DNA of 32,000 nucleotides from Bellilinea caldifistulae (GTDB lineage Bacteria; Chloroflexota; Anaerolineae; Anaerolineales; Anaerolineaceae): positions 90,001-122,000 of the forward strand of contig NZ_LGHJ01000006.1 in the NCBI RefSeq assembly GCF_001306055.1. Reading direction: 5' to 3'. A model generated the notes under the pieces. The model saw nothing but the letters and a program-made list of their open reading frames with translations, had not been told where the DNA came from and made no database searches. Shown here one piece after another: positions 1,038-30,491 of the stretch (the first letter of the stretch is position 1; each line of letters begins with the position of its first letter). Position numbers and translations under genes: made by a program.

Positions 1038-1050
1038 GAAAAAGCAACCC

Positions 1051-1914: not shown

Positions 1915-1921
1915 AAAGAGA

Positions 1922-13150: not shown

Positions 13151-14329
13151 TCAGCGTTCCTCGGCAAAGCGCACGTCCACGGTCATACCCCAGCGCAGGC
13201 GCGGGTCGCTTTCCAGCAGGCGCAGGCGGACGCGGTAGACCACATCCCCGCCACGGGTTTGCGGGTAATCGGCAATGCGCTCGATTTTGGCGCGCAGGTG
13301 CACCTCCGGCAGGGCATCCGGCGTGATTTCGGCTTCTTCATCGCTGCGGATGCGCACCACGTCCTTCTCGCTCAGGTCGGTGGTTTCGGCGTACCACTCC
13401 GAAAGATCAGCCAGCACCAGCACGGTTTGAGCAGGCGCAACGCTCTCGCCGGGCGAGTAACGCACCTCCACCACCGTTCCGTCGAAGGGGGCGCGCAGTT
13501 CCAGCCGGCGGAGGGCTTCCTCGGCAGCGGCAACGGCCGCCTGAGCCGCCTCTACCCTTGCCTGCGCCAGGGCCAGTTCATCCGGGTCGGGTTTCAACTC
13601 TTGACGGGCTTCGTAGGTTCGGCGGGCGTCCTCCAACCGCTGGTTGGCCAGATCCCAGCGGGCGCGCGCCAGTTCGACCTCATTCGTCAGCAAACCCAGT
13701 TCGCGGCTGGCGTCGTTGTAGCGCAGGCGGGCCTGCTCCACATCGTCCTCGGCGCGCTTGCGGGTGGGGTTGTCGGCGGCCAGGTTGGTGTAGCGGCCGA
13801 GGGTTTCCTCGCGGTCTTGCAGTTCCTGCTGAAGATCGGCAACTTGCTCACGCAGGTCGTCAATCCGGTCGCGGGTGGCGCGGGTATCCAGCCGGTCAAA
13901 AGCCTGCCAGGCCTGCACGGCTTCGCGTTCGGCTTCGAGCATGGCCACCCGCGCCTGTTCGGCGGTCAGGGCAGCTTTTTTGTTGAGGGTATCCAGCGCC
14001 TGCTGGGCGGCCAGCAGTTCGGCTTTAGCCTGAGCCAGAGTTGCCTGTGCCTGGGCGCTTTCCGAGAGGCGCGCCAGCACCTGCCCGGCCTGCACCTGCT
14101 CACCTTCGCTGACCAGCACCTCCGCCAGCGTTCCGCCGGTGTTGAAGAACAGCATCGCATCATCGCGCGGCACAATCCGCGCCTCGGCGATGATGCCGCC
14201 TCGGCTTTCTACCGAGGGGGGCGGCGCGGGGGTGGGGGTGGGCGAAAGCACCGATTGAACGGCGGTACAGCCGCCGGTCAGCACCAGCAGCACAATCATT
14301 CCAAAAATCAGGCCTGTTTTGGATTTCAT
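13151..14329 (-). CDS. HlyD/MacA-type periplasmic adaptor (membrane fusion) lipoprotein
   Basis: Lipoprotein signal MKSKTGLIFGMIVLLVLTGGC, a long alanine/glutamine-rich coiled-coil, and a C-terminal beta-barrel region. GGAGG lies 6 nt before the ATG at 14329. ATGs at 14335 and 14356 are also possible. Confidence 0.8.
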   Translation of the reverse strand: MKSKTGLIFGMIVLLVLTGGCTAVQSVLSPTPTPAPPPSVESRGGIIAEARIVPRDDAMLFFNTGGTLAEVLVSEGEQVQAGQVLARLSESAQAQATLAQAKAELLAAQQALDTLNKKAALTAEQARVAMLEAEREAVQAWQAFDRLDTRATRDRIDDLREQVADLQQELQDREETLGRYTNLAADNPTRKRAEDDVEQARLRYNDASRELGLLTNEVELARARWDLANQRLEDARRTYEARQELKPDPDELALAQARVEAAQAAVAAAEEALRRLELRAPFDGTVVEVRYSPGESVAPAQTVLVLADLSEWYAETTDLSEKDVVRIRSDEEAEITPDALPEVHLRAKIERIADYPQTRGGDVVYRVRLRLLESDPRLRWGMTVDVRFAEER

Positions 14330-14348
14330 GGTCATCCTCCCAGCAAGG

Positions 14349-16757: not shown

Positions 16758-17815
16758 CGTTTGAATCCTCCACCGGGGTGGTGCTTTAGGAAGACCTGCT
16801 TCAACCCGCTGGATTGCAGCCAGTCCCGCCAGCCGGCCGGTTCGATCACCAGCGCTTCGCCGCCTTCGATGGCGCGCAGGCTGGCAGCCGGGGAGATTTC
16901 AGCCAGCGTTTCGGCGCTCCAAAACATACCGGGGTGGTATTCGGCGGCCGGCTTTTCGGCTTCCGCTTCGGTTGGAAAGAGACCCACCCGTCCGCTGACC
17001 AGCACCCACAGACCGACGGCTTCGCCCGGGCGGGCAAGGATTTGGCCGGCTTCAAATCGGCGCGGGCTGGCCAGGTGAGTCAGTTGCAGCAATTGGGGGT
17101 GGGTCAGCCAGTTCAGCGCGGCTGCCAGATGCGGATGGATGATTTCCCCATCCGAGAGCAGAATCGTGCGGTGGGTGCGCGCCATCAGGGCTGGGTCGTG
17201 GGTGACGATGATGACGGTCTTGCCCTGCGCCACCAGGCCGTCGAACAGGTTGAGTACATCTGCAGCGGTACGTTCGTCCAGATTGCCGGTCGGCTCATCG
17301 GCAACGATGAGCGGCGGATCGTTGGCAAGGGCGCGGGCAATGGCGGCGGCCTGCTGCTGCCCGCCCGAAACCGCCCCGGGCAATTTGTCCATCACATCCG
17401 CCAGGCCGACCTGTTCCAGCAGGCTGCGGGCGCGCACCTCGCGTTCGGCGGGGGTGTAGCAGTTGCACAAATCCATCGGTAAAAGGGTGTTTTCCAGCAG
17501 CGAGAGCATCGGCAGCAGCTGGAAGAACTGAAAGACAATCCCAATCGTCACCCCGCGCCAGGCAGCCAGTTGATTTTCGGTGAGGGTGTGGGGCTGAACA
17601 CCGGCGACTTCTACCAGCCCGCGGGTGGGGTGGTCAATCCCGGTGATCATGTTCAGCAGGGTGGATTTGCCGCTGCCGGACTTTCCGACAATGCTGACAT
17701 ATTCCCCCTGCTGAATGGAAAGGGAAATGCCCTTCAACACCTCAACCTGACCGCCGGGCGCAGGAAAGGCCTTGACCACGTCCTGAAGGCGCAGGTAGCC
17801 ATTTGTCCGGCTCAT
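16754..17815 (-). CDS. ABC ATPase (MacB/LolD-like) fused to a C-terminal cyclic-nucleotide-binding-like (CAP/cNMP fold) domain
   Basis: Walker A GKSGSGKST, signature VSGGQQQ, Walker B LIVADEPT. The C-terminal ~120 aa (RRFEAGQILARPGEAVGLWVLVSGRVGLF...) follows the cNMP-binding beta-roll pattern. The ATG at 17815 overlaps the upstream stop (ATGA). Confidence 0.75.
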   Translation of the reverse strand: MSRTNGYLRLQDVVKAFPAPGGQVEVLKGISLSIQQGEYVSIVGKSGSGKSTLLNMITGIDHPTRGLVEVAGVQPHTLTENQLAAWRGVTIGIVFQFFQLLPMLSLLENTLLPMDLCNCYTPAEREVRARSLLEQVGLADVMDKLPGAVSGGQQQAAAIARALANDPPLIVADEPTGNLDERTAADVLNLFDGLVAQGKTVIIVTHDPALMARTHRTILLSDGEIIHPHLAAALNWLTHPQLLQLTHLASPRRFEAGQILARPGEAVGLWVLVSGRVGLFPTEAEAEKPAAEYHPGMFWSAETLAEISPAASLRAIEGGEALVIEPAGWRDWLQSSGLKQVFLKHHPGGGFKR

Positions 17816-18525
17816 GCTGTAACCTCCGCCGGTAATTGGGCCTGACACTCGTGCAGGCGGCCATCCTCCAACCGCAGGCAGCGGGTTGCCCGCTCCATCA
17901 GGCTGGTATCGTGGGTGACCATCAGAACGGCTTTTCCCTCTTCGGCAAGGCGGATGAAAATCTGGATGATTGTTTCGGCGGTGACCGAATCCAGCCGGCC
18001 GGTTGGTTCGTCGGCCACAATCAGGGGCGGGTCGTTAGCCAGGGCGCGGGCAATTGCCACGCGCTGCTGCTGCCCGCCAGAGATGGCTGCCGGGCGTTTG
18101 TAAGCGTGATCCTTCAGCTCAACCGAGTCGAGCAATTGCAGGGCGCGCTGCGGACTGCGCAGAGGATGAAACTGCCTGCAAAAGTCCATCGGCAGCATGA
18201 CATTGTCCAGCAGACTCAGGTTGGGCAACAGGTAAAACGACTGGTAGATGATGCCAATCTTTTGACCGCGAAAGCGCGCCCGCCGGCTTTCGTTCAAGCG
18301 GTGCAGGCTGACGCCATCGCACAGCACCTCCCCGCCGCTCAGGGTGTCTATGCCGGCGATCATGTTGACCAGGGTGGTCTTGCCCGCCCCGGATTTACCG
18401 TAAATCAGCACGAACTCGCCGGGGAAGACCTGCAGGTTGATCCCTTTCAACACCGCCTGCCCGCCGCTTGGGGAGGGGTAGGTTTTCTGCACATCCACCA
18501 GTTTCAAAATGGGGCTGGCGCTCAT
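17812..18525 (-). CDS. ABC ATPase (MacB/LolD-like), first gene of the exporter operon
   Basis: Walker [10 protein letters not shown], signature ISGGQQQR, Walker [13 protein letters not shown]. The start is the ATG at 18525; a TTG at 18534 is also possible. Confidence 0.85.
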
Positions 18526-18607
18526 TCCAAACAACCTGTATAATAATAGACAGACTGTTTATGATTATAAATCAGCAAGGACGGCTGTCAAGAAGCAATT
18601 CTCGGAG

Positions 18608-18627
18608 GCTGTTCAGAATTGAACAGC
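18608..18627. promoter_or_regulatory. Perfect 20-bp palindrome GCTGTTCAGAATTGAACAGC in the divergent tetR/ABC intergenic region (putative TetR operator)
   Basis: 8-4-8 inverted repeat located 19 nt upstream of the tetR ATG, in the 120-bp divergent promoter region. Confidence 0.5.
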
Positions 18628-18645
18628 AATTCAGGTTAGGATAAC

Positions 18646-19263
18646 ATGAGCACACCTGCCCAACGACCTGACCGGCGGGTCAGCCGGACGCGGCGGCTGC
18701 TGCGCGAAGCGCTGACCAGCTTGATTCTCGAAAAAGGCTACGATGCGGTGACGATAGAGGACATCACCCGCCGTGCCGATCTCGGCCGAACCACCTTTTA
18801 CCTGCACTACCGCGACAAGGAACACCTCTTTCTGGAAAGCATCGAACAGAGCGCCGATGAACTGGCCCGTCAGATTGTGCAGATACCGGCGGAAACGTTG
18901 TTCAACGAAAACGGCGAAGGCGCCGGTCTGCCGATTGCGCTGGTCTTTGAACACGCTGCCCAAAATGCGGATCTGTACCGTGCCATGCTGCGCAGCGAGG
19001 GTTCGATTAAAGCCACCAGCCGCCTGCGGGAATTAACCATCCAGTACGCGCTGGAGTTCACCCGCCGCTGGTGGGAGCGGCGCGGGTTGACCAGCGAGCC
19101 GCACATACCGCTGGAAGTGATTGCCCAGTTTTTCGCCGCCAGCCTGCTGGGTACGCTGGTGTGGTGGTTGGAAGCGGGCATGCCCTACCCGCCCCGCCAG
19201 ATGGCGGCCTTCTTCCGCCGGCTGGTGCTGGATGGACTGCGCAGCGTCACCGAATCTCATTAA
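18646..19263 (+). CDS. TetR/AcrR family transcriptional regulator
   Basis: N-terminal HTH block RRLLREALTSLILEKGYDAVTIEDITRRADLGRTTFYLHYRDKEHL. The gene is 205 aa and divergent from the exporter operon. Confidence 0.9.
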   Translation: MSTPAQRPDRRVSRTRRLLREALTSLILEKGYDAVTIEDITRRADLGRTTFYLHYRDKEHLFLESIEQSADELARQIVQIPAETLFNENGEGAGLPIALVFEHAAQNADLYRAMLRSEGSIKATSRLRELTIQYALEFTRRWWERRGLTSEPHIPLEVIAQFFAASLLGTLVWWLEAGMPYPPRQMAAFFRRLVLDGLRSVTESH

Positions 19264-19285
19264 TAACAAGTTGCTTTGATCATAA

Positions 19286-19314
19286 TTGTCTTTCATGCCC
19301 GAATCTTCTACAAT
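19286..19314 (+). promoter_or_regulatory. Candidate promoter TTGTCT-N17-TACAAT upstream of the UPF0261 gene
   Basis: Hexamers at 19286-19291 and 19309-19314. The RBS AGGAGG precedes the ATG at 19368. Confidence 0.35.
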
Positions 19315-19367
19315 AGAAACGGTTCTTTCTTCTCCCCATTTCCCAAAATCTTCCAAAGGAGGTCAAT

Positions 19368-20582
19368 ATGCCAAAAACCGTTGTGCTGGTTGGGGCGCTG
19401 GATACGAAAGGCAAGGAATTTGCCTTCGTGCGCGATTTAATTGCCGCGCAGGGACTGCAAACGCTGGTGGTGGATTTTGGCGTGATCGGCGAACCGGCCT
19501 TTGCGCCGGATATTCCGCGCAGTGAAGTGGCGGCAGCCGGGGGCGGCGATCTGGCGGTGCTGGCGGACGGCAAGCACAAAGACGAGGCCATGCGCGTCAT
19601 GGCAGCCGGGCTGGCGAAGGTGGTGCGCAAACTCTACGACGAAGGCAAACTGGACGGCATTCTCGGCATGGGCGGTTCGGGCGGCACTTCGATTGCCACG
19701 GCAGCGATGCGCACGCTGCCGGTGGGTGTGCCAAAGGTGATGGTTTCAACCGTCGCCGGCGGGGATGTTTCGGCATATGCCGGCACGAAGGATATCACTT
19801 TCATGCCCTCGATTGTGGATGTAGCCGGCATCAACAGCATCAGCCGGGTGATTTACACCAACGCCGCCGGGGCAATCAGCGGCATGGTCAAGATGGAAGC
19901 CCCCGCCGCCAAAGCCGACAAACCCCTGATTGTGGCTTCCATGTTCGGCAATACCACCCAGGCGGTAGATCATGCCCGTTCGATACTGGAAAATGCCGGT
20001 TATGAGGTGCTGGTCTTTCACGCCACCGGCACCGGCGGACGGACGATGGAAAGCCTGATCAGCGATGGTTATATCACCGCGTGCCTCGACATCACCACCA
20101 CCGAGCTGGCCGATGAGGTGTGCGGCGGGGTGCTGAGCGCAGGCCCGGAACGCTGCCTGGCGGCAGCCCGCAAGGGCATTCCTACCGTGCTGGTGCCGGG
20201 GTGCGTGGACATGGCCAACTTCTGGGGCATCGAAACCGTGCCGGAAAAGTACAAAGGCCGCAAATTGTACCAGTGGAACCCGAATGTGACTCTGCTGCGC
20301 ACCAATGTGGAAGAAAACATCAAAATTGGCGAGATGCTGGCGCGGGCAGCCAACGAATCCACCGGGCCAGTGGCAGTTCTCATTCCCCTCAAGGGCGTTT
20401 CAATGCTCGACAGTCCCGGCGGGGATTTTTGGGACGAAGAAGCCGACCGGGCTTGCTTTGAAACCATTCGCAAAAATCTCAAACCGGGTATCCCGTATAT
20501 TGAGATAGACGCCAATATCAACGATCCGGAATTTTCCGGCAGGGTTGCCGAAACCCTGTTGGAGATGTTGAAAAAATCTTAA
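19368..20582 (+). CDS. UPF0261 family protein (Tm-1 N-terminal-like, nucleotide-binding)
   Basis: 404 aa. The N-terminus VVLVGALDTKGKEFAFVRDLI is characteristic of UPF0261. The RBS is strong. Confidence 0.8.
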   Translation: MPKTVVLVGALDTKGKEFAFVRDLIAAQGLQTLVVDFGVIGEPAFAPDIPRSEVAAAGGGDLAVLADGKHKDEAMRVMAAGLAKVVRKLYDEGKLDGILGMGGSGGTSIATAAMRTLPVGVPKVMVSTVAGGDVSAYAGTKDITFMPSIVDVAGINSISRVIYTNAAGAISGMVKMEAPAAKADKPLIVASMFGNTTQAVDHARSILENAGYEVLVFHATGTGGRTMESLISDGYITACLDITTTELADEVCGGVLSAGPERCLAAARKGIPTVLVPGCVDMANFWGIETVPEKYKGRKLYQWNPNVTLLRTNVEENIKIGEMLARAANESTGPVAVLIPLKGVSMLDSPGGDFWDEEADRACFETIRKNLKPGIPYIEIDANINDPEFSGRVAETLLEMLKKS

Positions 20583-20597
20583 GTCAAGGAGGGAAGC

Positions 20598-21428
20598 ATG
20601 GCATTCACCCGTCAGGAAATTTTAAACCGTTTGCAGGCGCAGGTTGCCGCCGGGCGCGCCATTGTCGGCGCGGGAGCCGGCACCGGGATTTCAGCCAAAT
20701 TTGCCGAAGCCGGTGGGGCCGACATCATCATCATTTACAATTCGGGACGCTACCGCATGGCCGGGCGTGGCTCGCTGGCTGGCCTGCTGCCCTACGGCGA
20801 CGCCAACCAGATTGTGGTGGAGATGGCCAGCGAAGTGCTGCCGGTGGTCAAGAATACACCGGTGCTGGCCGGGGTGTGCGGCACCGACCCGTTCCGGCTG
20901 ATGCCGGTCTTTCTCAAGCAGCTGCGCGAAATTGGCTTTTCGGGCGTGCAGAACTTTCCGACCGTCGGGTTGATTGACGGCAACTTCCGCGCTAACCTGG
21001 AAGCCACCGGCATGGGCTATGACAAAGAAGTCGAGATGATTCGGCTGGCGCACGAGATGGATTTGTTCACCTCGCCCTACGTGTTCGATGCCGATCAAGC
21101 GCGCGAGATGGCACGGGTCGGCGCGGATGTGCTGGTAGCGCATGTCGGGCTGACGACTTCCGGCAGTATTGGCGCCGGGGTGGCGATGACGCTTGACGAA
21201 GCGATAGACAAGGTGCTGGAGATTGCCGAAGCCGGCAAGCAGGTGCGCAAGGACATTCTGGTCATCTGCCACGGTGGGCCGTTTGACGAACCCGATCAGG
21301 TCGGCAAGGCACTGGCGCGCATGCCGGGCATTGTCGGCTTCTTTGGGGCGTCCAGCATCGAGCGTCTGCCCACCGAACGCGCCATTCGAGCGCAGGTGGA
21401 GGCGTTCAAGAATATCCGGCTGGCGTAG
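20598..21428 (+). CDS. PEP-hydrolase-like TIM-barrel protein (Tm-1 C-terminal-like), partner of UPF0261
   Basis: 276 aa with the RBS AAGGAGGG. Recalled family blocks: [33 protein letters not shown] and [10 protein letters not shown]. Confidence 0.75.
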
Positions 21429-21448
21429 ATCTCTATCCCGAAGATTAG

Positions 21449-21484
21449 ACTGGCGGGTATTGAGCCCGCCAGTTTTGTTTTTTG
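21449..21484 (+). terminator. Rho-independent terminator of the UPF0261/PEP-hydrolase-like operon
   Basis: Stem ACTGGCGGG / CCCGCCAGT with a 7-nt loop, followed by TTTTGTTTTTT. Confidence 0.8.
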
Positions 21485-21489
21485 ATTCC

Positions 21490-21783
21490 ATATCACCGCC
21501 CATTTGCTCGCCGCCTTTTAGGAGGCTTTTTCTCACCAGTCAGCCCCATACCTCACCAGGAAATTGGAGTTTCACTATACGCCTGAACACAACTGAAGTC
21601 GAAATCTCTGTTCTGACTGAACAATGCTTGGATCGCAGGTTGGGTAGCCAAGCAATGGTAGCAAGCCAAATCGGCGCTTGGGAAGCTGAACGGAACGCCG
21701 CCCGGCAACCAATGATTGACGTTTCACCATCCCGAATGCCAGGGATAAACTCAAAAAATTGTACCCGGTGAAAGAAGAACAAT
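21490..21783 (+). pseudogene. Degraded 3' fragment of an IS630-family transposase
   Basis: Translation across several frames gives (stop)EAF...KLEFHYTPEHN / EVEISVLTEQCLDRRLGSQ...AWEAERNAA / RFTIPNARDKLKKLYP. This matches the conserved C-terminal IS630 blocks (LEFHYTPKHGSWLNMAEIE...QCL.RR...W...RN...F....AR.KL..LY). It carries a stop, frameshifts and a deletion. Confidence 0.7.
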
Positions 21784-21796
21784 GATTGACCCGGCT

Positions 21797-21864
21797 CCCC
21801 GACGTTTGACTCACCTGCGCCGCGAAGCACAGCGAGGCGGTGTCAGGGGAAGCGCATGTTGGGC
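21797..21864 (-). repeat. attC site (terminal, most degenerate) of the ble-like/gyrI-like cassette
   Basis: On the - strand it reads GCCCAAC ... GTCGGGG. The internal sequence is homologous to the other attCs (cacctgcgcc...gcacagcgaggcgg...gtcagggg). Confidence 0.6.
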
Positions 21865-21880
21865 GGCGTTCTTTCAGGAA

Positions 21881-22225
21881 TTAATCATCTTCAAAGAAAA
21901 AGAGCCCGTTTCCATCCATATCAAGCGCGACAAACTCTTTCCTGCCCCAAGACTTTTCTTCTAAAGCCCCGTTTGGATGGATAACCTCTGCTTGCTGGTA
22001 CTCCTTATACAACACTTCAATATTGTCTACCGCTATCCTGCAAGCAGTGTTTTCGGCGATATTCTTATCCTGACATTCCCATAAATGAATTTCCACCGAG
22101 TCACGCTTCACGGCAGCATAATCGCCATAGTTGAAAAGCTCCACAAAGCCAAATTTGCTCTTATAAAATTCGACCGAAGCCTTTACATTAGCAGCAGGGA
22201 ATTTAGGGACAACATATTTAAACAT
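21881..22225 (-). CDS. Bleomycin-binding-protein-like glyoxalase/VOC superfamily protein
   Basis: 114 aa. The pattern FYKSKFGF..., GDYAAVKRDSVEIHLWE..., SWGRKEFVALDMDGNGLFFFEDD parallels Ble/BLMA proteins (recalled: ...PWGREFALRDPAGNCVHFV). The RBS AGGAG lies 5 nt before the ATG. Confidence 0.7.
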   Translation of the reverse strand: MFKYVVPKFPAANVKASVEFYKSKFGFVELFNYGDYAAVKRDSVEIHLWECQDKNIAENTACRIAVDNIEVLYKEYQQAEVIHPNGALEEKSWGRKEFVALDMDGNGLFFFEDD

Positions 22226-22248
22226 AGTCTGCTCCTATCTATGAACGC

Positions 22249-22719
22249 CTACAAAATCGGAACACAAAAGTCCATAGTATGCTCGTAGTAGACCTCATAA
22301 CTGGGACGTTGCGGGTCTACAATCAGTTGATGTTGTGGCACATACTCCGCAAAGAAACGCCCGATAGTCTCTCCTATCGTATTTGAGTCTTTCTCAAGTG
22401 ATAGGATTGCATAACGCCCACCTGGTAGTTCTTTTGTTTGGACACCTTCGGTGTCTCGGGAAATGGACTCAGGAAGTTCTAGTGCGCACTCATAACCAAC
22501 TAATTGAGCGCCGTTGGTGCGTGGGATGCCAATTACCTTTAGGGTTGAAGGGTCGAAGCCGCACCGTTGAGCCCAGTCTTTTATATGTTGAAAACCATCC
22601 CGAATTTGTTCGTTATAACTACCCGTCGCTTGTTGTAGTTGGCAAGACACATAGACGATAAAGGCAGGTGTCAAATCTTGTATAGTAACGTGTAATGGTT
22701 GTTCAGTAAAAGTGTTCAT
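22249..22719 (-). CDS. GyrI-like small-molecule-binding domain protein
   Basis: 156 aa starting at MNTFTEQPLHV, with the RBS GGGAGA. ELPGGRYAILSLEKDSNTIGETIGRFFAEYVP ... YEVYY is the typical GyrI-like (SbmC/AraC effector-domain) pattern. The longer ORF start at 23013 reads through the attC and is rejected. Confidence 0.7.
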   Translation of the reverse strand: MNTFTEQPLHVTIQDLTPAFIVYVSCQLQQATGSYNEQIRDGFQHIKDWAQRCGFDPSTLKVIGIPRTNGAQLVGYECALELPESISRDTEGVQTKELPGGRYAILSLEKDSNTIGETIGRFFAEYVPQHQLIVDPQRPSYEVYYEHTMDFCVPIL

Positions 22720-22784
22720 AAAAAGTCTCCCATGCTGAAATTGTGAACGACAAAGCGTGTTGGTGTGGTGGAACGGATTAAGCC

Positions 22785-22853
22785 GCCCAACGAGCGGCGC
22801 ATCACCTGTGGCGAGCCGCGCAGCGGAGCGTCCGCTGCAAACGGTTGTTAGGC
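22785..22853 (-). repeat. attC site of the DHFR-like cassette
   Basis: On the - strand it reads GCCTAAC ... GTTGGGC, with complementary ends. The central gcgcagcggagcg block is shared with the other attCs. It begins 6 nt after the cassette stop codon. Confidence 0.65.
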
Positions 22854-22858
22854 CGCCC

Positions 22859-23497
22859 TCACCGACGCACATAGCGCAAGTGTGTGGCGGCTGGACTATC
22901 AAGAACCCTGTCAATGCGAAACTGCGGCAACGGCTCGCGCAGGTTTTCGAAGAGACGCCGCCCGCCACCGAACAACACGGGGGCCAGGGCGATTTCCAGC
23001 TCGTCAACGACACCCAGGTTCAGGTACTGCTGGATCACATCCGCTCCACCCGCGATACGAATATCACGACTGCCTGCGGATTCCCGAGCCAACTCTAGGG
23101 CACGCTCTGGCCCGTCATTGATGAAATAAAAGGTCGTTCCACCAGGGCGTACCCAGGGATTCCGATTCTCGTGAGTAAGAACGTATACCGGCGTGTGAAA
23201 CGGAGCCTCCTCTGGCCAACCACGCTCGCCACCGTCGAACATTCGCTTGCCCATGATGTTGGCTCCGATACGCTCCGTGGTGGTGCGAAGCAATTCATTG
23301 ACTGGGCCGGTCTCTCCACCTGGTCCAAGCTTGAGATTCTCGCGGAAGTACTGTTGATTAAATATCCAGCCCATCAGCGCACCCCACTTGGCGCCCCAGT
23401 CCTTGTAGTCTGGGTTGTCCCAGTTCTCCATGGTCATTCCTTCCGGTGCGATGTAGCCATCGAGACTAAGGCTAATGTTGACGAATACTTTGCTCAT
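22859..23497 (-). CDS. Dihydrofolate reductase-like (RibD C-terminal domain family) protein
   Basis: 212 aa. VFVNISLSLDGYIA ... IMGKRMF ... PVYVLTH ... IRIAGGADVIQQYLNLGVVDELEIALAPVLFGGGRRLF is the RibD_C/YwjB-type pattern. The RBS is GGGAGA. Confidence 0.8.
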   Translation of the reverse strand: MSKVFVNISLSLDGYIAPEGMTMENWDNPDYKDWGAKWGALMGWIFNQQYFRENLKLGPGGETGPVNELLRTTTERIGANIMGKRMFDGGERGWPEEAPFHTPVYVLTHENRNPWVRPGGTTFYFINDGPERALELARESAGSRDIRIAGGADVIQQYLNLGVVDELEIALAPVLFGGGRRLFENLREPLPQFRIDRVLDSPAATHLRYVRR

Positions 23498-23525
23498 GAT
23501 TCTCCCTTCGCGTGTTCGGATGTCA

Positions 23526-23602
<77 letters not shown>

Positions 23603-23629
23603 AACCCGTGGTTCTTTGAAATAAGCCTT

Positions 23630-24193
23630 TCAAACAATCCTTTCCATTTCCATCTGATCTTGACGATCAGGACGAATCCAGAATAAAGCAATGTTGGCTT
23701 CTCTACATAATTCAGCCAATATATCTCGTCGAATTCTACCATTCCACTTGCCACTCAGATAGCCACTGCTTTGTGACGTAAATACGAAATCAGCAATAAC
23801 TTCGGCTCGCCCGTCCTGCAAAATGCCTGAAATTTGTTTCAATGATTCTATGTCTTCCGACAAAACGCTTTTAAAGCGACGCCTATGTTGTTGAGGTGAG
23901 TGCCCCCAGCGCTGGAAGGCTTTTATCTGAACAACAAGTACAGGCTGGACACACCCCGGGGTGGTATTGGCTTGGCCTATGACAAGATCAAACTTGCGCT
24001 CTCCCCGAGAAACTCCGCAGAGACGGGTTTCGCTGTAAATTTCTGAAAGCGGACATCCATTTTCGAGAAGCCGATAGTAAAGATAAGCCGCTACGTCTGC
24101 TTCCAGCAAAGGAAAGAACTTCTTCTGATTGAAAGCATCACACAAGTCTTGTAAAGACCTTTGGAGTAAATCAAAAGCACTCTTAGTATCCAA
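23630..24193 (-). CDS. Uncharacterised 187-aa cassette protein with a PD-(D/E)xK / Mrr-catalytic-like signature (E31 ... D69 ... Q89-I-K91)
   Basis: TTG start at 24193 with GGAGA 9 nt upstream; there is no upstream ATG or GTG in frame. LLEADVAAYLYYRLLENG ... RKFDLVIG ... VLVVQIKAFQRW parallels the neighbouring Mrr-like protein (FERLIQRFLRESGF ... GGIDGRG ... VIFQCKRWQ). Confidence 0.55.
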   Translation of the reverse strand: MDTKSAFDLLQRSLQDLCDAFNQKKFFPLLEADVAAYLYYRLLENGCPLSEIYSETRLCGVSRGERKFDLVIGQANTTPGCVQPVLVVQIKAFQRWGHSPQQHRRRFKSVLSEDIESLKQISGILQDGRAEVIADFVFTSQSSGYLSGKWNGRIRRDILAELCREANIALFWIRPDRQDQMEMERIV

Positions 24194-24225
24194 CTCTAAT
24201 GCTCTCCATTGTTCATGAAAGGGCT

Positions 24226-24297
24226 GGCTAACGGTTTGCGCTTCACCTGCGCCGTGAAGCGCAGCGGAGCGGCGTCAGGTGGAAGCGCGTGTTAGCC
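24226..24297 (-). repeat. attC site of the DpnI-like cassette (best preserved)
   Basis: On the - strand it reads GGCTAAC acgcgcttcCacctgAcgcc ... ggcgcaggtgaagcgc aaacc GTTAGCC. The R boxes are perfectly complementary and the arms pair with two extrahelical bases. It begins 3 nt after the stop codon. Confidence 0.8.
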
Positions 24298-24300
24298 CGC

Positions 24301-25083
24301 CTATTGCATAGATCGGTAAATTTTACGATATACACCTGGCTTGATAAACTGTATCAAGCCCAAGTCTCTGATAATTTGAAGTTGTTGCCTAATCTTGGCT
24401 CGTATGTTTTGGTTAGCGGGATAGGATTTAGCCAATTCTTTCTCATAAGCGTACACTTGTTGAAGTGTGAACTGTTGGGGTAGTGATTCTACTATCCGTA
24501 GGACGAGAGCAACCCATCCCCTTTGGTCCAAGGTTAGCGTTGACACAGAATGAGCAGTCTGCCATTGCAACCTGACTATTGTTGGTGGGCTTGCTGAACC
24601 ATTTTGCACCACATCTACAAATGCAGTACATGGTATAGATTCAAGTGCCAATAAGCACCCTTGCCAACCCGCGCGTCGCGCTTGTGGACCTAAAGGGCGA
24701 CGAGGAATGATGCTTTGTTCAGTTATCCACGACCGATGAAGTATTCTAACCTGTTGAACAGATAGGTTCTTGAGATCATATTGTAGGAGGATCAGGGAAG
24801 GATGCCTTCCATTCTTAATTGCTTGGATTGTGGTATTGTATTCTGCCCCTAGTATCTTCTTCCCAAAAGGTTTTGATTGGCTTTTAAGTTGATAGGTTTC
24901 CCCACAAGACTGACACTGAAAATCAGATGTGCGTGAGTTCGCCGGCAAAAGAGACAATGTCCCGCCACAAGAAGGACATTCAAGATTGTCGGATGCCCAC
25001 GCTTCCGTAAGAATACGCGCTTTCTGCGACGCACTCTTGTAACCTTGTATTTTACTAAGATATCTTGAAAAACCAATATCCAT
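24301..25083 (-). CDS. DpnI-family methyl-directed (G-m6A-TC type) restriction endonuclease homologue
   Basis: 260 aa. YKSASQKARILTEAW...CPSCGG...DFQCQSCGETYQLKS, IIPRRPLGPQARRAGWQGC and the C-terminal IRAKIRQQLQIIRDLGLIQF..GVYRKI closely parallel the DpnI sequence as I recall it (YKSNSQKARILTEDW, IIQRKPLAPTARRAGWIGC, IKEKIRQQLQILRDKEIIEF). Confidence 0.85.
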   Translation of the reverse strand: MDIGFSRYLSKIQGYKSASQKARILTEAWASDNLECPSCGGTLSLLPANSRTSDFQCQSCGETYQLKSQSKPFGKKILGAEYNTTIQAIKNGRHPSLILLQYDLKNLSVQQVRILHRSWITEQSIIPRRPLGPQARRAGWQGCLLALESIPCTAFVDVVQNGSASPPTIVRLQWQTAHSVSTLTLDQRGWVALVLRIVESLPQQFTLQQVYAYEKELAKSYPANQNIRAKIRQQLQIIRDLGLIQFIKPGVYRKIYRSMQ

Positions 25084-25101
25084 AATAACATCTCAAGAGC
25101 A

Positions 25102-25118
25102 GGCTAACGGTGTTAGCC
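25102..25118 (-). repeat. Collapsed attC remnant (R boxes only: GGCTAAC-ggt-GTTAGCC) between the Mrr-like and DpnI-like ORFs
   Basis: The ends and flank (GTTAGCCCGC) are the same as in attC 24226-24297, but the ~50-bp internal stem-loop is missing. Confidence 0.6.
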
Positions 25119-25125
25119 CGCTTTT

Positions 25126-25974
25126 TTATAGCGAAGCAAACCAATTTTTATCAACCGACACCTTTTCAACCTGGATTTTTTCGGTTTTTACGCCTAAAGC
25201 CAACTCTCGCAATTTTTCAACCAACTGATCGCCATCTATCAAATCAATTGCAGGTGCGCCATCACGGGTGGCTTCCCATACGGCATCTTTGGTAAATGTT
25301 CCCGTTGTAACCAGTAAACCTTTATCGGCTCGTCCAACCATTGCGCCACGAAAATCTCTTACTTGATTTGCCCTTACTGCGCCTTGCCAGCGTTTACACT
25401 GAAAAATTACATGAAAACTCAATAAACCACCCAAGCGCATAATACCACGACCATCTATACCCCCATCTCCACTGCGCCCTGTAACTTCAACTTGAATAAA
25501 ACCAGATTCTCGTAAAAATCGTTGTATCAGTCTTTCAAAGGCATCTGGCTCCATTTTCATCAGCGTTTCGAGCAACTCTTCTTGCCAAGTGAGCGTTTTG
25601 CTTTCTTCGTCAACTTCAGTGGCTTCTAAACGTTCTGCCCGTAATTGCCCTCGCACTACTCTGACAACTTCCTTTTCATTTACATCTGTCAGGTTTCTGC
25701 CTTCAGGAGTTAATGCCCAAACACCACGACTAGAATTTTCAAGAATCCCGTACCTTTTCAAATAACTGCGTGTCCATGCTAACCGATATTCAAATTCAGT
25801 TTGTCCACCACGTTTTGAATCGTGCAAAATATCCAACTGCTCATCTTGCAAGCCTAAAATTTCTGCAACCTTACTGTTGATTTCTTCAACTGTTCCCGAT
25901 CCACCCAATTTTTTCATCGCTCGGAGTAGGGGATTCATCATTTCGTCATAGGTAGGAATATTGTTCTTTGACAT
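25126..25974 (-). CDS. mrr: Mrr-like type IV (modification-dependent) restriction endonuclease
   Basis: 282 aa. The N-terminal Mrr_N-type winged helix is IPTYDEMMNPLLRAMKKLGGSGTVEEINSKVAE. The C-terminal Mrr catalytic block is FERLIQRFLRESGF...GDGGIDGRG...FQCKRW...VRDFRGAM. Confidence 0.85.
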   Translation of the reverse strand: MSKNNIPTYDEMMNPLLRAMKKLGGSGTVEEINSKVAEILGLQDEQLDILHDSKRGGQTEFEYRLAWTRSYLKRYGILENSSRGVWALTPEGRNLTDVNEKEVVRVVRGQLRAERLEATEVDEESKTLTWQEELLETLMKMEPDAFERLIQRFLRESGFIQVEVTGRSGDGGIDGRGIMRLGGLLSFHVIFQCKRWQGAVRANQVRDFRGAMVGRADKGLLVTTGTFTKDAVWEATRDGAPAIDLIDGDQLVEKLRELALGVKTEKIQVEKVSVDKNWFASL

Positions 25975-26006
25975 TGTTGACCTTTGAAACGATTACACAA
26001 TGGGCG

Positions 26007-26013
26007 GACTAAC
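26007..26013 (-). other. Probable attI/first-cassette recombination junction (GTTAGTC on the - strand)
   Basis: A GTTRRRY-type core lies 32 nt upstream of the first cassette ATG, at the edge of the AT-rich intI-proximal spacer. Confidence 0.4.
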
Positions 26014-26136
26014 GATTATATTATACAGACTTCTGATACACTGCATTTTTGCCGTATATCTAGACCAATGAAGTGGGTTATACCGCGATTATGCCTGGTT
26101 ATCTAAGACCCTCCGATTAGAATTATTACTAAATAG

Positions 26137-26164
26137 ATTATATTAAACTAGGGAAAAATTTCAA
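26137..26164 (-). promoter_or_regulatory. Near-consensus sigma70-type promoter TTGAAA-N16-TATAAT directed into the cassette array (candidate Pc)
   Basis: On the - strand the sequence reads cagTTGAAAtttttccctagtttaaTATAATc. It sits 9 nt upstream of, and divergent from, the intI remnant ATG at 26173. Confidence 0.55.
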
Positions 26165-26172
26165 CTGTTTTT

Positions 26173-26830
26173 ATGCCTGATCCATCCTCTCCAAGACCCA
26201 AAAAACTTCTCGATCTGCTTCGAGATGCCATCCGGCTGAAATGGGTATCGCTGAGATCGAAGCCTTCCTCACCCATCTGGCGAAAGACGAGCATGTTTCT
26301 GCCTCTACTCAAAACCAGGCCTTGAGCGCACTTATCTTTCTCTACCGTGATGTGCTTGACTTACCCCTCAATTTGACATTTCAGTCAGTTCAGGCGAGGA
26401 GGCCAAAACATCTGCCGACGCTAGTTTCGAAGACTGAGGTCGAGCGAGTGCTGCGCCAGATGAGCGGAGAAACCCTGCTGATGACCCAGCTTATGGCAGC
26501 GGCTGACGTTTGCGGGTGAAAGATGTGGACTTTGAACAACACCGGATTATGGTGCGTGACCCAAAAGGAAGGCATGATCGCACGACCAGGCTGCCAGTAA
26601 CCCTTGAGCTGTCCTTGCAAGCTTAACTCCAGGCGGTGAAACACCTTCATGAGCGCGACCTTGCTTCCGGGCACGGAGAAGTGCCCCTTCCCTCGGTTCT
26701 GGGCAGGTGTTCGTACTGTTCAGGAGCTATTAGGGCATAAGGATGTAAAGACGACCAGGATATATACCCACGCGCTTAATCGCGGAGCCAATGCTGTGCG
26801 CAGCCCGCTGGATGAGAGAGGCTGCTTGTT
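26173..26830 (+). pseudogene. intI: Integron integrase (IntI-type tyrosine recombinase) pseudogene
   Basis: Fragments lie in three frames: MPDPSSPRPKKLLDLLRDAIRLK, then EIEAFLTHLAKDEHVSASTQNQALSALIFLYRDVL...RRPKHLP, then [29 protein letters not shown]...(TAA at 26624)...[15 protein letters not shown], then [35 protein letters not shown]. These parallel IntI1 blocks as recalled ([60 protein letters not shown]). The region between GEVPLP and IRTVQ is deleted. Confidence 0.8.
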
Positions 26831-26940
26831 CAAGCTTGTCCCTGCTCTTGTCTGGAGTTTTAATCCTTGCATGGACTCGGTCGAGCTGTGCCAGATCTTG
26901 CTCAAATCGTGCTGCCTAACAAAACTTTTTTGATGAAGTA

Positions 26941-27939
26941 CTAGGCATTCAGGTAAGGCAAGTCCAGCATCAGGACATCCAGCAGCAGGCGGGTATTGAG
27001 GTTGGCGTCCAGTCCGGCCTGGGCCTGCTCAACGGCGTTCAGGCAGGCGTAGGCACGCCGCAGGTCAAGGCGGGCGGCAATGCTTTCGAGCCGCTCGCGC
27101 TGGTCAAGGTTGGTGAGCGCCCCGGCAGATGCGCCGCAAATCAACAGCACATCCCGCCACAGGCTGCTCCAGGTTTGCAGCACGGCGCGGATTTTCTCGC
27201 GGTCGTTGCCTTCAGCCAGCCCCTCGCTGATTTGAAAGCGGGTCAAGCGGTCGCCGCTCAGAGCGGTGAAGAACAGATCAATTCGGCGCTGGCGTTCGGT
27301 GAGCGCCTGCTCATCGTGAAGAAGGCGCAAGGCCATCCCCGGACGTCCCCCGCTCAAATGAGCGAAAAGGCGCGCCTGCTCTATTGGGACACCCGCGCTG
27401 CGCTGCAAGTGGTCGGCCAGTGCATCCAGCGCCATCGGGCGCAGGCGCAGCACCTCGCAGCGCGAGAGGATGGTGGGCAGTACGTCTTCGGGGGTGGGGG
27501 CAGTCAGCAATAAAATGACTTTGGGCGGGGCTTCTTCCAGCGTTTTGAGCAGGGCGTTCTGCGCACTGGGGGTGGCCTGTTCAAAATTGAGCAGCAGGGC
27601 AAGCCGGTAGGGGGCTTCGTAGGGGGAAAGGGAGAGGCTGCGCTGCAATTCGCGCACCTGTTCCACTTTGAGACTGCTGGCACCTTCGGCTGGCTGAATC
27701 ACGCTCAGGTCGGCGTGTTCCATGCGGGCAATCTGGCGGCAGGTGCGGCATTCGTCGCATGGTTCGCCGGGCTGAACCGGCTGGGGGCAATTCAAGGCGC
27801 GCGCGAAGGCCAGCGCCAGCGTGCGCCTTCCCACGCCGGGCGGACCGCTGAACAGGTAAGCATGGCGCACTTCCCCATTGCGGATGTGCTGCTGCAACAG
27901 GCGCACCGCCCAATCATGACCCCAGATTTCCCACGGCAT
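26941..27939 (-). CDS. holB: DNA polymerase III subunit delta prime
   Basis: 332 aa. HAYLFSGPPGVGRRTLALAFARALNC, the zinc module CDECRTCRQI, and SRC (TILSRCEVLRL) are HolB/clamp-loader motifs. Confidence 0.85.
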   Translation of the reverse strand: MPWEIWGHDWAVRLLQQHIRNGEVRHAYLFSGPPGVGRRTLALAFARALNCPQPVQPGEPCDECRTCRQIARMEHADLSVIQPAEGASSLKVEQVRELQRSLSLSPYEAPYRLALLLNFEQATPSAQNALLKTLEEAPPKVILLLTAPTPEDVLPTILSRCEVLRLRPMALDALADHLQRSAGVPIEQARLFAHLSGGRPGMALRLLHDEQALTERQRRIDLFFTALSGDRLTRFQISEGLAEGNDREKIRAVLQTWSSLWRDVLLICGASAGALTNLDQRERLESIAARLDLRRAYACLNAVEQAQAGLDANLNTRLLLDVLMLDLPYLNA

Positions 27940-27958
27940 AGGTTGATTTTAACCGAAT

Positions 27959-28597
27959 TCAAGCCATTTCGGGTTGGATCAGGAACACCCCCGCGCAAAA
28001 CGAAACCGGCTCGAACGCGGCTTGAAAGCCGGCGGCGCGCAGGGCCGGCAGGTCGTCCTCAACCAGCCAGTAGGGTTCTTCGTCCCATGCATCGGCGGCG
28101 GCTTGCTTTGCCTGTTGGCGTGCTTCCGCATTGGGGAAGGCAATATCACCGATCACGATCCAGCCGCCGGGTTCAAGGTGATTGCGCAGGTGTGTGAGCA
28201 GGGCAATTTTGCCAGCCTGATCGAAGTGATGAAAAACATAAGCAGAGACCATCCGCGCGTAATGCTGCGGCACATCGGCGGGCAGCGGATTGCCCAACTG
28301 GTGTTGAAAGAATCTGGCCCCCGGTACTTTGCGGCGGGCAATTTTCAGCATTTCGGCGGAAAAGTCGCTGCCCCACACGCGGCAGCCGGCCTGCACAAAG
28401 CGGGCGGTCAGGTTGCCGGTGCCACAGCCGAGATCCAGCACACTCAAACCGGGCCGAACCCCGGCGCGTTGAAAGACCCGCTCCAGCACCCCGGCGTAGC
28501 CCTCAAAGGGGAGGCCCTGACCGCGCTCGACTTCCGAGTCGTAGTTCTCTGCCCACCGGTCAAATTCCCCAGGCGTGAACAGGCCGTTTACTTCCAC
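27959..28597 (-). CDS. Class I SAM-dependent methyltransferase
   Basis: Motif I VLDLGCGTGNL. I prefer the GTG at 28597 (VEVNGLFTPGEFDRWAENYD), which overlaps the upstream stop by 10 nt. The longer ORF start at 28738 would overlap the upstream gene by about 150 nt. Confidence 0.7.
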   Translation of the reverse strand: MEVNGLFTPGEFDRWAENYDSEVERGQGLPFEGYAGVLERVFQRAGVRPGLSVLDLGCGTGNLTARFVQAGCRVWGSDFSAEMLKIARRKVPGARFFQHQLGNPLPADVPQHYARMVSAYVFHHFDQAGKIALLTHLRNHLEPGGWIVIGDIAFPNAEARQQAKQAAADAWDEEPYWLVEDDLPALRAAGFQAAFEPVSFCAGVFLIQPEMA

Positions 28598-29328
28598 TCG
28601 AACACCAGCGCCGGGAAGTCCGGCAGGTTGATGGTCATTTTGGACGGTTCGGGACTGCCGCACGTTCCCCCAATGCAGTTGCATTTTTCGTCCATCAGGT
28701 TGCTGGTGCAGGAGATGGCGGTGTACTCCACCACCCAATCCCCTCGTACCGTGGGCGGCATGAAGGCGTAAAAGACTCCTTCCGGGTCGGTCATCGCATC
28801 GGTGCGCTGCTGATTGGGTGCTTCGCCCTGGGTGATCATGAATTGAATGCCGCTGATCGGTTTACCGGTGCGGTCGGCCACCCGCCCCATGACGGTCACC
28901 ACGTTCTCCGGCTGAATGACCGGCACAGCCCGTAAATCCACCGGTGATTCAAGCAGTTGGGCAAAAATCCAACCGCTGATGCCCTTATCGTTCTCCACCC
29001 GAATCCACTCGCCGCCGGGGGATTTGCCGAGCACGGTAAAGACCGTCCCTTTGCGCACACTGGCCTGAACGGCAAACAGATAGCCGGGGTTTGCGCGTAC
29101 GTTGACCCAATCCACGGCGGTTTTCACCTCAAAGGGGGCAAACGGTGTGGCCGTCGGCGTGGGGGTGGCGGTGGGCAGGGGGGTGGGTGATGGGGTGAGG
29201 GTGGCGGTCGGCGGTGGTGGGCTGGGGGTGAGCGTGTTGGTCGGCGTGGGGGTGGGTTGCGCCAGCGCGTTGCAGCCGGTCAGCATCAAAATTATGATGA
29301 GAATACCAATCCCGAAAAGAGCGCGCAT
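28588..29328 (-). CDS. Lipoprotein with a PT-rich linker, a bacterial SH3 domain and a carboxypeptidase-regulatory-like domain
   Basis: Signal and lipobox MRALFGIGILIIILMLTGC after the RBS GAGGAGGG. The SH3_3-like segment is VNVRANPG...VLGKSPGGEWIRVENDKGISGWIF. The segment VMGRVADRTGKPISGIQF is CarboxypepD_reg-like. Confidence 0.7.
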   Translation of the reverse strand: MRALFGIGILIIILMLTGCNALAQPTPTPTNTLTPSPPPPTATLTPSPTPLPTATPTPTATPFAPFEVKTAVDWVNVRANPGYLFAVQASVRKGTVFTVLGKSPGGEWIRVENDKGISGWIFAQLLESPVDLRAVPVIQPENVVTVMGRVADRTGKPISGIQFMITQGEAPNQQRTDAMTDPEGVFYAFMPPTVRGDWVVEYTAISCTSNLMDEKCNCIGGTCGSPEPSKMTINLPDFPALVFEWK

Positions 29329-29514
29329 GATCTGGTCCCTCCTCTTCTCTAAACCGATCTCTCCTGCGCATGGGGGCTGGTTGTGTTCCTCCATATCTGA
29401 ATTATACAACTTTCGCTGACCAGACAATCGTTCCGAGAGCCGGCAATTGTAAAAGAAAACAACCTGCCGGGGGGGTGTCCTTTGGGCAGAGCGTTGGAAC
29501 GTCTTTTGATCAAC

Positions 29515-30390
29515 TCAGGCCGGCTGAATGAAGGTGCCGGCGCGCAGTTCCGCCAGCGTCTGCTGGATTTCTTCCATGGTATTCATCACAAATGGCCCAT
29601 AGGGGTAAATCGGTTCACCGAAGGGGGCGCCGGCCATCAGCATGAAACGCGCCGGTGCGCTGACCCCGCCGGGCTGAGCCAGACCGGTCTCGACCACCAG
29701 CCGTTCACCGGGGTGGAAAGTGATCATGCGCACAGCCGAAACAACCTGCTGTTCACCAAACATTGCCGATCCCTCGAACAGATACACCAGCAAGGTATGT
29801 TCGTGGGGCAGGTCGAGTTCAAAGCGGCTGCCGGGCAGTAACTGGACTTCCATGTAAATCGGTTGGGCGGCAATTTCGGTGACCGGTCCTCGAATGCCGG
29901 CGTACTCACCGGCTACCACGCGCACCGAAACACCGTCTTTTTCGTGCAGCGGAATGTGGGCGGATTGGATTTCCTGATAACGCGGCTGACTCATCTTGAG
30001 GGCTGCCGGCAGGTTGACCCACAGTTGAAAGCCATCTACCCGCCCGGCCTGACTGGGGCGCGGCATTTCTTCGTGCAAGATACCCCGTCCACTGGTCATC
30101 CACTGCACATCCCCGGCGGCGATCACCCCCATGTTGCCGAGGCTGTCGCGGTGGCGCACACTGCCTTCCAGCATGTAGGTGACCGTTTCGATGCCGCGAT
30201 GCGGATGGGTGGGAAAGCCCACCAGCGGCGTTTCGCGCGGGTCGTTGAAGGCAAAATGGTCAAACAGCAAAAACGGGTCGAATCGGTTTTCGCGGCTGGG
30301 CGCAAACGAGCGCAGCAGGCGCACGCCGGCGCCTTCGATGACCATTTTCGGCTCGATGATCTGGTGAATTGTACGAAGGGATGCGCTCAT
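29515..30390 (-). CDS. Pirin family protein
   Basis: Pirin cupin motif GFPTHPHRGIETVTYMLEG. The ATG at 30390 (MSASLRT) is preceded by GAGGAAA. The longer ORF start at 30606 overlaps the upstream gene and is rejected. Confidence 0.85.
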   Translation of the reverse strand: MSASLRTIHQIIEPKMVIEGAGVRLLRSFAPSRENRFDPFLLFDHFAFNDPRETPLVGFPTHPHRGIETVTYMLEGSVRHRDSLGNMGVIAAGDVQWMTSGRGILHEEMPRPSQAGRVDGFQLWVNLPAALKMSQPRYQEIQSAHIPLHEKDGVSVRVVAGEYAGIRGPVTEIAAQPIYMEVQLLPGSRFELDLPHEHTLLVYLFEGSAMFGEQQVVSAVRMITFHPGERLVVETGLAQPGGVSAPARFMLMAGAPFGEPIYPYGPFVMNTMEEIQQTLAELRAGTFIQPA

Positions 30391-30491
30391 CTCATTTCCT
30401 CTATTGCGACAATAATTATCCGAATTGTATTTCATTATAACCCAAATGGAGGGGTTGCGGCGGTTTCCTGTAACGGCTTTGGGGGAGACCG

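Follow-up and report, generated by a model that had tools for sequence, protein, structure and literature searches.

What occupies the interval between the TetR/UPF0261/PEP-hydrolase genes and holB in Bellilinea caldifistulae GOMI-1, is it still active, and how did it come to stand there? The region was studied in a window of 32,000 nucleotides (contig NZ_LGHJ01000006.1, positions 90,001 to 122,000), to which all coordinates below refer unless another locus is named. A first-pass annotation, made from the letters of the window alone, had proposed a decayed sedentary chromosomal integron with an inactivated integrase and a frozen cassette array. Our analysis leaves little doubt that the region is a degenerate integron carried on a 5,455-bp island acquired by this strain. 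An integrase (intI) pseudogene, an attI region, a candidate cassette promoter (Pc) and five attC-derived sites bear out the integron with its inactivated integrase; the term sedentary was not supported, and the freezing of the array was supported in part.

The first question is whether the recombinase remnant beside holB belongs to an integron at all. The platform features on which the answer depends are the following.

26191..26816, plus strand: intI pseudogene (TIGR02249, 212 bits; tblastn with intact homologs)
26137..26164, minus strand: candidate Pc, TTGAAA-16-TATAAT (11 of 12 consensus positions)
26007..26095, minus strand: attI region (homology to a segment lying some 100 nt before intact intI genes)

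Blocks resembling an integron integrase had been noticed at 26173-26830; they lie in three reading frames, and tblastn bounds the remnant to 26191-26816. When the readable blocks are concatenated, the integron integrase model TIGR02249 is the top model with 212 bits, against 70 for XerA, 61 for XerC and 52 for XerD, so that the best match is neither to XerC/D nor to phage integrases. The nearest homologs, 72-89% identical across the common blocks, are intact and reach 450-468 bits on TIGR02249, and the best database homologs are 65-80% identical, several of them being named integron integrase and many coming from metagenome-assembled genomes (MAGs) of Chloroflexota. The intact homologs P0001, P0003 and P0024 pass TIGR02249 (cut-off 265 bits) with 450-486 bits, the matches of the close homologs being end-to-end.

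Lesions were mapped by tblastn of P0001 and P0003 against 26191-26816. Relative to P0001 the gene has lost about 100 codons and acquired at least three frameshifts and two in-frame stops. Beyond the N-terminal block LRDAIRLK about 20 codons (approximately amino acids 20-40 of P0001) are gone; at YGSG*RL (asterisk, stop) the frame is shifted and interrupted by a stop, and the six residues LMECLR are missing beside the first catalytic arginine; a further in-frame stop follows downstream; a deletion of 75 codons (amino acids 211-285 of P0001) takes out the IntI-specific insertion and box II (HxxR); and an additional frameshift precedes the C-terminal block bearing the catalytic tyrosine. Judged by its sequence, the gene cannot encode an active enzyme.

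The attI region is recognised by homology. Segment 26007-26095 aligns, with a 16-nt insertion, to some 100 nt of conserved sequence that precede an intact intI at four other loci (L246, L004, L003 and L248). On these contigs the sequence is conserved to the right of an AAC triplet, itself preceded by a variable RYYY, and to the left it diverges or the contig ends. The contigs diverge exactly at the AAC/GTT triplet, as where a first cassette is joined at G↓TT. In the window this crossover triplet, AAC on the plus strand and GTT on that of the cassettes, occupies 26011-26013, and the start codon of the first cassette gene comes 37 nt after it. The spacer 25975-26190 has a fraction of guanine plus cytosine (GC) of 0.356 and, as the first-pass annotation had remarked, holds a divergent near-consensus promoter, which runs from 26164 to 26137 between attI and intI and is directed at the cassettes. 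A promoter match as good was found in 1.2% of spacer shuffles; the totals of promoters and terminators in the island equal the shuffle expectation, only the 11/12 site standing out. It is a sigma-70-like site of suitable position and orientation, and may act as the cassette promoter Pc.

Five attC-derived sites accompany the platform. They were located with a covariance model, R1, built from the alignment of the repeat family described below and run over the 32-kb window with filters off; all five matches are on the plus strand, and in the rest of the window there is none better than E = 0.17. As the cassette open reading frames (ORFs) lie on the minus strand, the recombinogenic bottom strand of the sites is expected to be the window's plus strand. 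Site E had been missed in the earlier reading.

25097..25124, minus strand: attC E, a remnant of the two R boxes alone, GGCTAACGG next to TGTTAGCC (19 bits, E=0.007)
24221..24303, minus strand: attC D, best preserved and intact, top-strand R'' GGCTAAC and R' GTTAGCC (102.9 bits)
23521..23608, minus strand: attC C, structurally intact, top-strand R'' GGATAAC and R' GTTAGAC (68 bits)
22780..22859, minus strand: attC B, decayed, top-strand GCCTAAC ... GTTGGGC, R boxes kept (49.8 bits)
21792..21870, minus strand: attC A, the last site, decayed, R'' GCCCAAC (41.9 bits)

Sites D, C, B and A correspond to four imperfect palindromes of 70-85 nt (24226-24297, 23526-23602, 22785-22853 and 21797-21864) which form one direct-repeat family and start 3, 27, 5 and 16 nt past a stop codon, respectively, as had been proposed. 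Their core motif occurs three times in the window, each time at a palindrome, and in none of 100 shuffles. D and C are about 80% alike. Among these four, D (z=-4.0) and C (z=-2 to -2.9) alone fold much better than shuffled sequence, unlike B (z=-1.2 to -1.4) and A (z~0); under R1, site D scores 102.9 bits on the plus strand against 30.3 on the minus strand. The described RYYYAAC and GTTRRRY ends are present roughly: the R'' boxes of D and C have one mismatch each, and in A the R' AAC has become GAC.

In the canonical attC, position 16 is a G, a conserved T stands at 23 or 24, the stem between has 6 bp, and the extrahelical bases lie opposite the bottom-strand AAC (PMC5027507). Sites D and C have this geometry. 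On the plus strand of both, an R box RYYYAAC pairs with GTTAGCC or GTTATCC, the spacer is asymmetric, and the bulges fall on the 3' arm, facing AAC; with the first base of R'' as position 1, they are bases 16 and 23. Read from its R'' end, D has a 7-bp R box and a short unpaired spacer, then G16 and T23, both extrahelical and separated by a 6-bp stem. In C one T and one A bulge singly from the 3' arm, the A being bottom-strand position 17, beside G16; its top strand reads C at position 16 and A at position 23. The two bulged bases attributed to the two best copies are thus G and T in D, and A and T in C. The other three sites fail the canonical geometry: in B the 3' stem arm has been replaced, many positions are unpaired and the canonical hairpin is lost; A, besides the mutated R' box, has 3-nt and 1-nt deletions in its stem; and E has lost about 57 nt comprising the L boxes, the extrahelical bases and the loop, what remains forming a hairpin of z=-4.3 with flanks matching the family repeat D6.

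GC-rich, intergenic imperfect palindromes could also be generic hairpins, either of the repetitive extragenic palindromic (REP) kind or terminators, lying by chance near an unrelated dead tyrosine recombinase; site E with its T-run indeed scores as a terminator on the plus strand. This explanation was weighed on the distribution of the family in other genomes and metagenomes. An 18-base degenerate core pattern was too loose for a scan of the genome collection, giving at least 119 matches, nearly all of them chance occurrences in GC-rich genomes; among them were genuine copies of the family at nine MAG loci, L023, L051 and L098 being three of these. A specific 26-base pattern is found on at least 120 metagenome contigs, and a profile search brings the total of fetched loci with copies to 129, a lower bound for the other contigs that bear the family. 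Adjacent copies are co-oriented in 65 of 67 pairs, mostly 460-1600 bp apart, and as many as ten sites of one orientation stand on a single 8-kb contig. In 133 of 167 cases (80%) a copy is preceded on the expected strand by a frame open for 60 amino acids or more, whose end falls between -15 and +60 nt, as opposed to 51 of 156 (33%) in the mirror control; with a minimum of 100 amino acids the counts are 123 and 16. Of the 129 loci with the family, 13 encode an IntI homolog; of 110 control loci holding chance pattern matches, none does (Fisher p = 3e-4).

The structure of the family was taken from 63 distinct full-length copies aligned by MAFFT without structure input. In this alignment 90.4% of cells pair and ten pairs show compensatory changes (69 cells), for instance ACCTG/CAGGT becoming GCCG./.CGGC; these values are reached in none of 500 shuffles, and slid registers pair at 30-38%. 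Within these covarying stems the bulged bases are conserved at the positions canonical for attC: none of the 63 copies lacks the bulged T, and 59 have the G beside it. R' exists in several forms (GCCTAAC, GCCCAAC, GGCTAAC, GCATAAC) and R'' in one (GTTAGCC), as is expected if recombination at G↓TT fuses the attC to the beginning of whichever cassette follows. There is no copy in the remaining 26.5 kb of the window, and over about 100 kb of related Anaerolineae loci the strong R1 matches are two sites just upstream of the intact intI of Bellilinea sp. (L005), where an intact IntI with two attC upstream reproduces the layout of the window. L051 gives a complete example, with intI and two cassettes each ending in a family attC. 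Together with the IntI rather than Xer or phage character of the recombinase, this polarity, this enrichment beside intI and this base conservation make the chance association of a scattered repeat with a dead recombinase hardly credible.

Some points do weigh against reading the region as an integron. The 212 bits of the remnant fall short of the TIGR02249 cut-off, which is expected for two thirds of a protein; the insertion that defines IntI is deleted here, and membership rests on the remaining blocks and on the close intact homologs. The attC calls come from the in-house model R1 rather than the curated IntegronFinder model, and since window sites B, C and D were in its training set their scores are partly circular, those of A and E being independent. 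The distribution of the repeat in B. caldifistulae itself was followed within the 32-kb window only.

Several further observations were made on the family loci. Near-identical copies occur, at L015, L047 and L097 and also at L051, L083 and L111, in MAGs labelled Syntrophaceae, Nitrospirae and Acidobacteria and in those of several classes of Chloroflexota (Roseiflexus, Thermoflexales, Ardenticatenaceae, Anaerolineae); this spread reflects either cassette traffic between phyla or binning errors. At L129 (intI 5118 to 4189, attC 392-3385 on the plus strand), L228 and L159 the array runs in the direction of intI and lies past its 3' end, an inverted-integrase layout which differs from the divergent one of the window. 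Beside the closest intact IntI homologs (L003, L004 and L245-L249) no attC arrays were found, these contigs being short and breaking at attI, hence uninformative. At L003 a truncated attC-like sequence adjoins attI, and the intact P0002 IntI has beside it, where cassettes would be expected, a split second tyrosine-recombinase gene and an IS91-type Y2 transposase (1131-1989 and 439-1140, both minus strand). In L005 the first large ORF beside the integron (506 amino acids, no Pfam hit) has internal direct repeats of 267 nt and 124 nt at 7851-8603, with 94-97% identity.

The next question is whether the array is frozen. IntI is a tyrosine recombinase which recognises the folded bottom strand of attC. 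The integrase of this island would thus have acted on the window's plus strand, exchanging strands with attI at AA↓C in the R' box; cassettes without promoters of their own would have been inserted beside attI, read from the outward Pc and excised by attC x attC recombination. Today three of the five attC are structurally dead (the AAC of A mutated, the arm of B replaced, E internally deleted), and attI, the Pc candidate, attC C and D and the six cargo ORFs are intact in sequence. The array would no longer be rearranged by its own integrase, and the cargo may persist as ordinary chromosomal genes, probably transcribed from Pc. Freezing in cis follows from the destroyed integrase; as a statement about the array as a whole it is still an inference. 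If another locus of the genome, or an incoming mobile element, supplied a working IntI, cassettes could be excised or captured through the two intact attC and attI; related genomes do have intact IntI genes using the same attC family, and mobilisation in trans of the cassettes of integrase-less arrays has been discussed by Cury et al. 2016 (PMC4889954). On the other hand, no second B. caldifistulae intI is present among the best 120 IntI homologs listed, a list which is not a genome inventory, and with three of the five sites dead at most the cassette between D and C (the ORF of 187 amino acids) would be excisable. We consider such mobilisation in trans rather unlikely.

How the integron came to this place can be read from its boundaries, which involve the following features.

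21486..26940, no strand: whole inserted island (blastn empty site, GC drop)
26817..26940, plus strand: non-coding tail of the integrase platform, 124 bp (conserved in other loci; terminates at the island boundary)
21538..21771, plus strand: C-terminal fragment of an IS630-family transposase gene (tblastn against plasmids), between the last attC and the core genome

The island is bounded by the terminator of the PEP-hydrolase gene and the stop codon of holB. On its left the plus-strand TetR/UPF0261/PEP-hydrolase block ends at 21428 and is followed by a strong terminator hairpin at 21447-21475; on its right holB, for the delta' subunit of DNA polymerase III, occupies 26941-27939 on the minus strand. 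In the MAG of a sister Bellilinea sp. (GCA_026003575.1), whose holB product is 88% identical in amino acids, the island is absent. Both in this MAG and in a metagenome contig (L250 and L251), 81 bp separate holB from the convergent PEP-hydrolase, UPF0261 and TetR genes. By blastn the two genomes are collinear over window positions 13511-21485 (87.7% identity) and 26941-30442 (82.5%), the gap between the blocks being 18 bp in the sister genome and 5,455 bp in the window; as the blocks stop at 21485 and resume at 26941, the island is 21486-26940. The synteny comparison suggested in the first-pass annotation hence agrees with its placing of the insertion between the UPF0261 operon and holB. The AT-richness which had been judged by eye is also real: computed exactly, GC is 0.478 in the island and 0.598 and 0.614 in the two flanks, and windowed GC drops from about 0.60 to 0.42-0.54 over 21500-26500. 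The contrast is milder against the whole genome, because the genome-wide average of B. caldifistulae GOMI-1 is 52.18% (PMC4574363).

The empty site bears directly on an alternative origin: a sedentary chromosomal integron of great age, passed down vertically at this position, as is the case in Vibrio or Xanthomonas, which decayed where it stood. A chromosomal location, array attC sites of one family and a cargo of non-resistance genes are all in agreement with such a history. By the definition of Cury et al. 2016 (PMC4889954), however, a sedentary integron has more than 19 attC sites or is found in 100% of the pan-genome. Judged on a single genome of the species and that of its closest relative, the island has five attC-derived sites and is missing from the latter, in spite of flanks 82-88% identical in nucleotides. 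The sister genome does possess an intact integron, but at another locus (L005) and with an IntI about 50% identical to the remnant. The near-identical attC copies in MAGs of other classes and the IS630 remnant at the distal end also speak against vertical inheritance, as does the tail of the integrase platform, described next. Taken together these data make a sedentary origin quite unlikely.

The 124-bp tail is 79-93% identical in L003 (3186-3308), L004 (1075-1187), L245/L246 and L247. It terminates in each context at ...GATGARGTAC (...GATGAGACAC in L247), beyond which the sequences are unrelated. The terminus thus falls on one nucleotide in five genomic contexts including the window, and in four of the five TAG comes next; in the window it abuts the holB stop codon. 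The intI-side boundary is in this way shared with at least four other, unrelated contexts. The locus of the closest intI homolog (L248) lacks the tail after intI. No copy of the intI-side end of the island that could form a terminal inverted repeat was found in the window, L003 or L004, nor were a target duplication or transposition genes found for the platform. A neighbourhood common to L003 and the window was considered and rejected, since both have Rce1-like, PNP_UDP_1 and aminotransferase genes but the tblastx likeness stops at intI and the tail.

At the opposite end, the IS630 fragment has no Pfam match and shows 43-50% identity over 68-75% of the query to features annotated as IS630 family transposase; it suggests that a deletion associated with an insertion sequence (IS) cut off the distal end of the element. 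The empty sister site, the single-nucleotide terminus of the tail and the IS630 fragment together argue for lineage-specific acquisition of a platform having, now or formerly, a mobility of its own. The platform may have arrived within a larger mobile unit, the tail representing its integrase-side end and the far end having been lost by the deletion associated with the IS630 fragment. More tentatively, and as a proposal that we think rather unlikely, intI and the 124-bp tail may be one terminus of an undescribed element which moves integron platforms between thermophilic Chloroflexota, much as Tn402 does for class 1 integrons, the island being a stranded copy.

A tRNA-targeted integrative element was dropped as a candidate: the window has no tRNA gene, and Rfam families gave no match in 21000-27300. 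Outside the island, a segment of about 55 bp at 8656-8711 matches the reverse complement of L250 three times (16232-16283, 16421-16470 and 16705-16761) at about 90%, and is probably a repeated coding motif.

It remains to describe the cargo. As first reported, six ORFs lie on the minus strand and read away from the integrase; all are intact, with near full-length domain matches where domains are recognised. They are co-oriented, read away from attI and make up five cassettes, one of which has two genes.

25126..25974, minus strand: cassette 1, Mrr-like type IV methyl-directed restriction endonuclease, 282 amino acids (Pfam Mrr_N E=2e-23, Mrr_cat E=1e-29; PADLOC mREase_IV E=1e-32)
24301..25083, minus strand: cassette 2, DpnI-like methyl-directed type II restriction endonuclease, 260 amino acids (Pfam DpnI E=2e-55, DpnI_C E=3e-28; PADLOC mREase_II E=2e-62)
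23630..24193, minus strand: cassette 3, protein of 187 amino acids from an unnamed small family (21 homologs, none named)
22859..23497, minus strand: cassette 4, RibD_C/dihydrofolate-reductase-like protein, 212 amino acids (Pfam RibD_C E=1e-13)
22249..22719, minus strand: cassette 5, first ORF, GyrI-like/Cass2 effector-binding protein, 156 amino acids (Pfam GyrI-like E=1e-16; Cass2 "Integron-associated effector binding protein" E=3e-10)
21881..22225, minus strand: cassette 5, second ORF, glyoxalase-fold bleomycin-binding-like (Ble-like) protein, 114 amino acids (NF033156 ble_BLMA_gen 60 bits, below cut-off; Pfam Glyoxalase weak)

Both attI-proximal cassettes encode methyl-directed restriction enzymes, type IV Mrr-like and type IIM DpnI-like, respectively; carrying these two nucleases, the host should therefore be without Dam-type GATC methylation. 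The DpnI cassette recurs on L173 (81-92% amino acid identity), where a family attC follows it. A gene matching N6_N4_Mtase lies about 6 kb past holB on L001 (3939-4802). The cassette 3 protein has no match in Pfam, NCBIfam or PADLOC; its AF2 model is confident (pLDDT 93.8) and has no fold match in the PDB at E < 0.04. Weak matches to models of viral PD-(D/E)XK nucleases and restriction endonucleases hint that it could add a third nuclease to those of cassettes 1 and 2. The GyrI-like and Ble-like ORFs are 23 nt apart, with no attC between them, and are assigned to one two-gene cassette because the same pair (74-77% amino acid identity) recurs on L160 before a single attC.

The locus offers a worked case of integron death, in which intI and three of five attC have decayed and the six cargo genes are intact, and the sister empty site sets the island boundaries to the base. 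The attC family, whose copies abound and differ little on Chloroflexota-type contigs (at least 129 loci), has an extrahelical geometry identical to that of proteobacterial attC, by which the rules of attC recognition are extended to a distant phylum; a family model of the R1 type is a ready means of finding such arrays. The integron concept itself is unchanged by these findings.

Among known systems, the element is in IntegronFinder terms a CALIN (cluster of attC sites lacking an integrase), a class comprising at least two attC with no functional intI nearby, here C and D with the three degraded sites, accompanied by a neighbouring intI pseudogene. In biological terms it is a whole integron at a stage of decay and hence a known kind of element: Chloroflexi integrons, CALIN arrays and their association with IS elements have already been described (Cury et al. 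2016, PMC4889954), and a recognisable intI pseudogene was found near 15 of 279 CALINs (PMC4889954). With these it shares its small size, its non-resistance cassettes and the frequent association with IS elements; it differs in retaining attI, a Pc candidate and the pseudogene rather than being an orphan array.

The chromosomal integrons of Xanthomonas stand beside ilvD, at a fixed site ancestral to the genus, and their intI is often inactivated. The island resembles them in its housekeeping-gene neighbour, disabled integrase, homogeneous attC within the array and retained cargo; it differs in that its closest relative has an empty site. In class 1 integrons, the transposon end IRi of Tn402 lies a short way past the 3' end of intI1. 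Likewise, the integrase-side boundary in the window is a short conserved non-coding segment with a fixed terminal nucleotide across contexts, and a loss of transposition functions may have stranded the element. On the other side, no terminal inverted repeat, target duplication or transposition genes were found with the island, its IntI is distant (the IntI1-type model PRK15417 stays below its cut-off), and the candidate Pc lies between intI and attI, not within intI.

Finally, sedentary chromosomal integrons are reported in a recent preprint to be stores of anti-phage defence cassettes (bioRxiv 10.1101/2024.07.02.601686). By comparison, the array of the island is very small, its host is a thermophilic member of the Chloroflexota and its platform is inactive. 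The common point is the cargo: the two attI-proximal cassettes encode defence-type nucleases, which agrees with the storage of defence genes in integrons described in recent reports.

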